Below are positions 21,193 to 21,503 of a stretch of 64,000 nt of DNA, in pieces. The stretch comes from Eledone cirrhosa (lineage: Eukaryota). Each line of letters opens with the position of its first letter. The first letter of the stretch is position 1. The notes below the pieces were generated by a model. The model was not told the DNA's origin. It saw nothing but the letters and a program-made list of their open reading frames with translations, and did no database searches. Both the position numbers and the translations under genes were made by a program. Location of the stretch: the NCBI GenBank assembly GCA_964016885.1, contig OZ024757.1, forward strand, positions 12,214,001-12,278,000, written 5' to 3'.

Positions 21193-21503
21193 GTGGCGTA
21201 GGATGGAGGAGGGGAGGGGCGCAGATACGAAGAGGGGAGTCCCCGGTCGCTGGGGAGGTCGCAGAGTGTGTGACGAAAGGACTATGACTGTATATAAACA
21301 GCTGTCTGGTTGTGGAGCCAACCAACCGGCCAGAAATTTATAAGTTTGTGGGTTTGTGGATTTATAAATATATAATAAATTGAAGTGAAAGTAAGTGGTG
21401 CGTGTGTTTCTTATTGGCAACATGACCCTCCCAAAGTATAACAATATCGGTTTCAACACACGATTTCAGATAATGAATCTTGCTAAACAAATTCAGAAAC
21501 GAA
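21193..21503 (+). mobile_element. Family A PLE-end copy with clustered A-to-G hypermutation
   Basis: Aligns to ~935-1242. About 30 A>G changes in 21193-21359. HHR core at 21250-21256 reads CTGGGGA instead of CTGAAGA. Confidence 0.9.

Follow-up and report, generated by a model that had tools for sequence, protein, structure and literature searches.

Clustered A-to-G changes in genomic copies of a Penelope-like element of Eledone cirrhosa, very probably a DNA record of ADAR-edited RNA

In the present study, a cluster of A-to-G changes in one retroelement copy of the octopod Eledone cirrhosa was confirmed as real, and hyper-edited copies of the same Penelope-like element (PLE) family were found at 19 loci on 8 contigs (15 sense-only and 4 fold-back). 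The first copy lies in the window, that is, the whole stretch of 64,000 nucleotides under study (assembly GCA_964016885.1, contig OZ024757.1, positions 12,214,001 to 12,278,000). We consider it very probable that the cluster in the window and those at the other loci are PLE RNA that was edited by ADAR and then fixed in DNA, and we infer that the enzyme was an ADAR and that insertion took place in the germline. A sequence-only reading of the window had proposed hyper-editing of the element RNA by ADAR, followed by reverse transcription into (TA)n, and this explanation is upheld by the excess of A>G, by the depletion of G on the 5' side of the edited sites and by the ADAR2 of the host.

Results

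The copy in the window and its edited tract. All reference positions below refer to one natural unit, L101:4235-8296 (4062 nt). The features are as follows, the parts of the hammerhead being read, and its cleavage site inferred, from the sequence.

21194..21507, strand +: 3' end (pseudo-LTR) of a PLE, 5'-truncated, equal to reference 3741-4062
21205..21359, strand +: hyper-edited A>G tract, with 23 sites by the strict filter and 26 against the nearest copy
21245..21289, strand +: putative minimal type-I hammerhead motif, edited
21250-21256, strand +: hammerhead core, CUGAAGA changed to CUGGGGA, with A6 at 21253
21258-21262 with 21270-21274, strand +: hammerhead helix II
21275-21278, strand +: hammerhead GAAA, intact
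after 21284, strand +: predicted hammerhead cleavage site
21360..21507, strand +: 3' end without edits, by sequence comparison and edit positions
21422, strand +: probable ORF start ATG within the unedited 3' end, near reference 3977
21447, strand +: insertion end 1 (reference 4002), where many reads and contigs switch from element to (AT)n
21448-21507, strand +: 60-nt tail (reference 4003-4062), its terminus being insertion end 2
19468..21193, no strand: left flank, target, (TA)n-rich array
21508..22643, no strand: right flank, target, (TA)n-rich array
168..1245: head-to-head insertion of another subfamily, unedited, used as comparison copy; minus arm 168-658 (reference 3492-4002), plus arm 678-1245 (reference 3479-4062)

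Compared with the two arms of the fold-back at 168..1245, the window copy has 25-26 A>G, all of them within 21205-21359 and 0 in 21360-21507, besides 9 other substitutions and 8-12 gap columns, the latter two arising because the fold-back belongs to another subfamily. When L019, the nearest natural copy, is the standard, the count is 26 A>G and 4 other changes, with 2 gap columns. The strict filter, which allows G a share of no more than 5% at a site among 192 background segments with diverged subfamilies included, retained 23 A>G against 4 other changes, and the A>G rate of the background was 200 in 57,548 A. The earlier counts of about 30 A>G and about 3 other changes were therefore slightly high for the former and too low for the latter when the fold-back arms are the standard, while the abrupt stop placed near 21360 holds up to the end of the copy at 21507. 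Likewise, the core change to CUGGGGA can be read as it had been described, and the first quoted example of A>G (21244) is exact; the second was overcounted by the G of TTTGT, a subfamily variant that is also in L019.

The sequence-only reading had also considered that G might be the ancestral letter. Since 20-30 A>G separate the window copy from each of the other aligned copies (76/76), A is the family state, and the cluster persists against the 192-segment background. Within this copy alone, adenosines that follow a G were edited at 2 of 16 sites (p 0.018). In four public runs (X1, X2, X5 and X19), possibly from other individuals, no piece lay over 21194-21248, and the edited sites that were covered had the A alleles of the family.

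The element family. In longer copies, the ORF that lies upstream has reverse transcriptase (RT) motifs, then a Cys-rich linker and, at its end, a GIY-YIG domain. In the frame of L101, whose ORF is split over frames, GIY-YIG (PF01541) scored 22.7 bits at a cut-off of 22.6 and RVT_1 was weak (E 0.02, under the cut-off) with a visible YVDD motif; Pfam gave no domain on the first ORF fragment. The linker before GIY-YIG has the form C-x4-C-xx-C, as for the clades Neptune and Nematis by the description in PMC8557442. The unit recurs in tandem with a period of 4068 nt, copies terminate at 4002 or 4062 with (AT)n next in both cases, and an inverted 5'-truncated arm is frequent, with 39 and 17 head-to-head pairs in two sets and the 60-nt tail on one arm. 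The genome has 3.0 Gb, and a single 35-mer has matches in at least 5,409 arms of it.

We regard the element as a PLE because its ORF, hammerhead motif, ends and inverted arms match the descriptions in PMC8557442 and PMC4209133. As in canonical EN+ PLEs described in these sources and in PMC11167929, RT is followed by GIY-YIG, a minimal hammerhead ribozyme (HHR) lies in the pseudo-LTR, and an inverted 5'-truncated arm, a tail at one end and insertion into (TA)n are present; the length of the tail is 60 nt here, as against 30-40 bp there. Minimal HHRs are known to occur in PLEs (PMC4209133, in the text available). The identity as a PLE, the recurrence and the edits shared by inverted arms are additions of the present work to the sequence-only reading.

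Other copies and elements were seen beside these. The copies L161-L172 (e.g. C1:4.76M, 23.35M and 75.74M) form a subfamily that is marked by a variant close to the 4002 end and has 237 pattern matches; many are short inverted pairs of about 600 nt, truncated at 3727-3741. This subfamily is possibly non-autonomous, and antisense RNA that covers the HHR may come from it. A second RT-bearing element (L101:281-1873, RVT_1 E 3e-10) adjoins the reference tandem, and the fragment of another GIY-YIG-bearing element in the window (18157-18882, minus strand; PF01541 E 0.005, under the cut-off) probably represents a second PLE family.

Recurrence and an ADAR-like signature. Fourteen of the sense-only loci, the window's included, came from searches with edited queries and with patterns that demanded A>G, so that the locus totals and the density of edits near the HHR are biased. 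In these 14 loci together, 1083 A>G stand against 173 other changes (G>A 36), and at all 19 loci A>G follows the orientation of the element on either contig strand. The edited fraction depends on the 5' neighbour (p 4e-26), being 0.375 after U (303/808), 0.345 after A (533/1546), 0.170 after C (152/893) and 0.125 after G (95/757); a scarcity of edits after G is what marks ADAR throughout animals by the account in PMC5625713. Adenosines with G on the 3' side were edited at 301 of 790 sites (p 3e-14; 14 loci), and these make up 301/1083 (28%) of the edited sites, an enrichment per context that partly mismatches octopus hyper-editing, for which that source gives a weak 3'-G preference with 20-25% of sites. 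The strand bias, the clustering and the 5'-G depletion that the sequence-only reading had proposed to look for are hence all seen in the pooled loci.

The sets of edited sites overlap little between loci (Jaccard median 0.22 and maximum 0.45 in 78 pairs), so the loci are separate events and not a subfamily. No two loci have an identical set, and no daughter copies were seen.

In order to estimate the frequency outside of the A>G-demanding searches, we used an unselected sample, consisting of the first 100 matches listed for a 35-mer; these make 86 regions, 2 of them already known to be edited. Over its 35 letters the pattern tolerates A>G and not T>C, and it misses short copies like that of the window. 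Three of the 86 regions were hyper-edited (95% interval 0.7-9.9%), the newly found one being at C1:2.08M. In none of the 164 unselected segments did any of T>C, G>A and C>T reach 4 changes within 150 nt, and APOBEC-type G>A on the sense strand was accordingly not found as a cluster of 4 or more in these segments. A T>C control near the HHR, which is a weak control, gave 0 matches, and another gave 13 matches with 0 hyper-edited.

Several candidates were dropped. Those at C3:122.69M and C3:353.9M were removed before counting as old, evenly diverged copies in which G>A exceeds A>G; C1:309.9M was ambiguous, with 5 A>G in 79 nt including 2 subfamily variants; and L219 and L244 had weak clusters of 4 sites each. 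The (TA)n flanks are interrupted by G, and the idea that they derive from (UA)n tails by editing was rejected on counts of 107 G and 107 C beside 48 unedited ends and of 29 G and 16 C beside 8 edited ends.

In the host genome, the adenosine deaminase domain (PF02137) matches at four places (C6:13.64M, C1:146.4M, C25:17.35M and C1:320.7M). The gene on C6 is ADAR2-like with its deaminase domain over two long exons, and the ADAR2 encoded in this genome shares 95% identity with the Octopus vulgaris protein, which marks the host as an octopod.

Fold-back transcripts as substrates. A search for T>C near the 3' end gave 4 matches, each in an edited inverted structure, and at these four fold-back loci A>G lies on one physical strand of the structure. 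At C3:222.2M, where an antisense arm of 62 nt stands opposite a sense arm of 400 nt, 11 of 19 paired A were edited against 1 of 148 unpaired ones (p 2e-11), and the antisense arm has 3 changes, which are A>G when read on that physical strand too. The antisense arm at C19:14.49M was edited at 15/59 in its paired part and 1/47 outside (p 7e-4), and the sense arm at 22/72, with 0 among the 26 A of the unpaired tail; C1574 has a similar pattern on the opposite strand. At C2:204.1M (L179, C2:204.12M), edits are in the antisense arm alone and include its tail, which has no partner at the locus; the pairing may therefore have been in trans, or with a tandem unit since lost. When the T>C sites are read on the strand of the transcript, their 5' neighbours are U 19, A 13, C 5 and G 2.

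Since the edits lie on one physical strand at all four loci and are limited to the paired stretch at two of them, fold-back transcripts were copied, and the confinement to paired stretches fits a deaminase of double-stranded RNA and not an error of RT. No dsRNA partner was found for the window copy or for the other sense-only loci. Editing of a fold-back transcript, as formerly suggested, is therefore borne out for the family at other loci, but the fold-back at 171-1242 of the window is not supported as the source, being unedited and of another subfamily.

The 3' boundary of editing. In the 14 sense-only loci, 0 of 648 A were edited beyond 3930 as against 213 of 811 at 3750-3900, and this boundary agrees with the stop at 21360 in the window. 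As a general rule, that the 3' 130 nt are never edited was refuted by fold-back copies edited at 3945-3995; the last ~60 nt of the sense arm are unedited in each edited locus seen. The partner strand of the sense-only loci may start near the TTTATAAA array (about 3900), or a folded, protein-bound 3' end may resist pairing in trans. In PMC11167929, protein binding is located in the first part of the ORF. Edits reach up to about 1.4 kb into the ORF, and in several long copies they are confined to about 3720-3900, around the HHR.

Discussion

We propose that PLE transcripts, by pairing either with their own inverted arm or with an antisense partner, form long dsRNA in which ADAR would deaminate about 10-60% of the paired adenosines. 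The RT of the element would then copy this RNA into a (TA)n target and read inosine as G, and the edits would become fixed in heritable DNA; the window copy would be one such insertion. A single RNA would probably be primed by two DNA ends, one at either end of the tail (4002 and 4062), with the same stretch copied twice. Overall, we lean towards the view that A-to-I editing is a heritable mutagen of this octopod PLE family, in which about 1-10% of the longer insertions record single hyper-edited germline RNAs, twin priming at the tail ends builds the inverted pseudo-LTRs, and whole fold-back transcripts are retrotransposed; as a joint statement this is somewhat better than evenly favoured.

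The edits of the inverted insertions bear on how these are formed. In the sense-only class, both arms carry A>G in the sense of the element at the same sites in 8 of 8 pairs, with 346/361 edits shared in seven pairs and 29 shared in the eighth (C1:2.08M). Since the edit sites are common to both arms, both derive from one RNA at insertion; a copied fold-back would give opposite directions and different sites, and two RNAs would rarely both be edited. Among the complete unselected pairs, one arm ends at 4002 and the other at about 4062 in 16 of 16 (p about 1e-5 if independent), the pair L227 being left out as incomplete at the edge of its region. The 4002 arm is the longer in 9 of these pairs and the 4062 arm in 7. 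In the 9, the tail-bearing arm is shorter at its 5' side and each arm has sequence that is absent from the other. In some pairs the arms hardly overlap (e.g. L207, 3520-4002 with 4006-4062).

Because of the paired 4002/4062 ends, of each arm being the longer in turn and of the scant overlaps, we favour twin priming on one RNA over DNA snap-back as the probable origin of the inverted arms. In LINE-1, twin priming means that both target ends use a single RNA as their template, and an inversion results. The inverted segments of L1 do not overlap, whereas PLE arms usually overlap by hundreds of bases, that is, by a stretch copied twice. Furthermore, the PLE protein PAc of the anole, which is a predicted dimer, extends both strands of the target DNA, and two RT starts flank the tail (PMC11167929). 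The sister arms differ by 0-5.8%, as would be expected of copies inherited since insertion.

It is possible, though we think it clearly less likely than twin priming, that the second arm was made from the first cDNA by snap-back or template switch and resolved by endonuclease at the tail, or that the arms were matched by early gene conversion, the origin by editing being the same. Such a course likewise predicts edits common to both arms. It would suit the edited perfect palindrome on C22:15.9M (C22:15915148-15917237, L104), with 0 differences in 929 nt, which is either a very recent insertion, a homogenised one or an effect of assembly. It would also agree with PMC8557442, where the tail is attributed to a probable EN-mediated resolution of an intermediate, and with the complete PLE layout at C1:2.08M (C1:2082000-2091500, L267). 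There, the inverted arm and an upstream partial unit share their 29 edits at 3718-3882 and both edited arms reach 4062, one of them running on into an unedited full-length tandem unit of another variant; the locus goes back either to one tandem RNA that was primed at places 4 kb apart or to two insertions in succession. In addition, there is no excess of A/G discordance between arms: 10 sites were discordant against 346 shared, ordinary G differed at 10/660 (p 0.16), and independent misreading of inosine in the two arms was thus not significant, so that two passes of RT are not directly visible. However, copying of the first cDNA would need an extra deletion in each of the 9 pairs with private sequence in both arms, and the pairs that hardly overlap, the use of either end by single-orientation copies (19 near 4002 and 27 near 4062) and the extension of both strands by PAc also speak against it. 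We therefore retain twin priming at the ends of the tail.

A further proposal of the sequence-only reading was that editing serves as a defence of the host by disabling the hammerhead of the element. The parts of the hammerhead in the pseudo-LTR (CUGAAGA, helix II, GAAA, UA and helix I) were read and folded; helices I and II form in the unedited copy (z -1.3, weak) and the edited copy loses helix I, and an Rfam scan of the window gave 0 matches at the gathering score. In favour of a defence, A>G disrupts the core at 10 of 14 loci, the edits of several long copies surround the HHR only, and no edit set is common to two loci, so that daughter copies were not seen. Nevertheless, two of the searches selected for HHR edits, the core is intact in 3 edited loci, and among six loci from ORF searches that are edited far into the ORF only 2 have a core broken by A>G. 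The edited RNAs were still inserted, and all edited copies seen are already 5'-truncated. Moreover, catalytic mutants of the HHR had no effect on insertion by the anole PLE in vitro (PMC11167929), and minimal HHRs cleave poorly by the descriptions in PMC11167929 and PMC4209133. A defence directed at the ribozyme is thus improbable.

Misincorporation by RT, e.g. with a skewed dNTP pool and no RNA editing, would likewise place A>G on the sense strand, event by event, but it predicts neither the confinement to paired stretches nor the 5'-G depletion nor, if the arms come from separate RT runs, identical sites in two arms, and we hold it to be very improbable. An artefact of assembly or sequencing, or a G-rich subfamily with ancestral G, is equally remote: the locus does lie inside kilobases of (TA)n and the public reads did not confirm the G alleles of the window, but at 19 loci the direction of A>G goes with that of the element, whichever contig strand it is on, the loci have different edit sets and sister arms have matching ones, and G is at 5% or less at edited sites even with diverged subfamilies in the background.

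With regard to known systems, A-to-G hyper-editing has been reported in RAV-1 and ALV, which are retroviruses of birds (Felder 1994; Hajjar and Linial 1995, both cited in PMC8586724), and there, as in the octopod PLE, ADAR-linked clusters of RNA changes are carried into DNA by RT. By that account, RAV-1 and ALV are exogenous viruses, whereas the case here is a retroelement that is not viral, with no fewer than 19 copies inherited in chromosomes and with diverged arms. The vertebrate LTR retrotransposons edited by APOBEC (PMC4866542) resemble the PLE loci as strand-biased, motif-bearing fossils of hypermutation in a genome, but as described there they arise by G>A through deamination of cDNA, and the PLE loci are A>G, of the RNA stage and in an invertebrate. 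That screen, by its available text, concerned LTR elements, retained those alignments in which G-to-A and not A-to-G prevailed, and found invertebrates devoid of DNA editing. Hyper-editing of repeat RNA in metazoans (PMC5625713) has in common with the PLE loci the 5'-G depletion and a dsRNA substrate; the same source reports an exceptionally high hyper-editing rate in octopus and more than 40,000 sites in lizard Penelope RNA. The edits described there are transient and in RNA, while those of the PLE loci are fixed in DNA with a 3'-G preference somewhat stronger than that of octopus. The PLE loci can be seen as an RNA-stage counterpart to endogenous elements edited by APOBEC, of a kind seen before in avian retroviruses.

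In the text available of PMC2873906, A-to-G clusters are handled in RNA traces and G-to-A clusters in DNA, and a 2016 review calls a part of ADAR editing in the evolution and suppression by mutation of Alu logical but undetermined (PMC4982230, in the portion available). Within the full-text literature and the titles and beginnings of abstracts covered, a body that most subscription papers lie outside, neither ADAR-edited genomic copies of retrotransposons nor twin priming on a single RNA in PLEs were described, and the available part of bioRxiv 10.64898/2026.07.22.740005 has nothing on RNA editing.

In these loci, the action of ADAR on retrotransposon RNA would be recorded in a genome, from cells that pass on their DNA, and this in a lineage known for its very high editing. 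The edits are natural barcodes of single RNA molecules for the insertion mechanism of PLEs, whose tandem and inverted structures are listed in PMC8557442 as of unresolved origin. Because they label single RNAs, the formation of these repeats becomes testable from genomes alone. The same A>G screen is applicable to any animal genome, retroelement or retrocopy.

Other features of the window. LINE-type ORFs with endonuclease and/or RT lie at 10616-13563, 22350-24698 and 39693-43413, and a tandem repeat of 466 bp at 26326-27981 has 3.5 copies that are 99% alike. An identical microsatellite set is present at 31940-32096 and 35483-35639, at an offset of 3543 bases, which suggests a local duplication.
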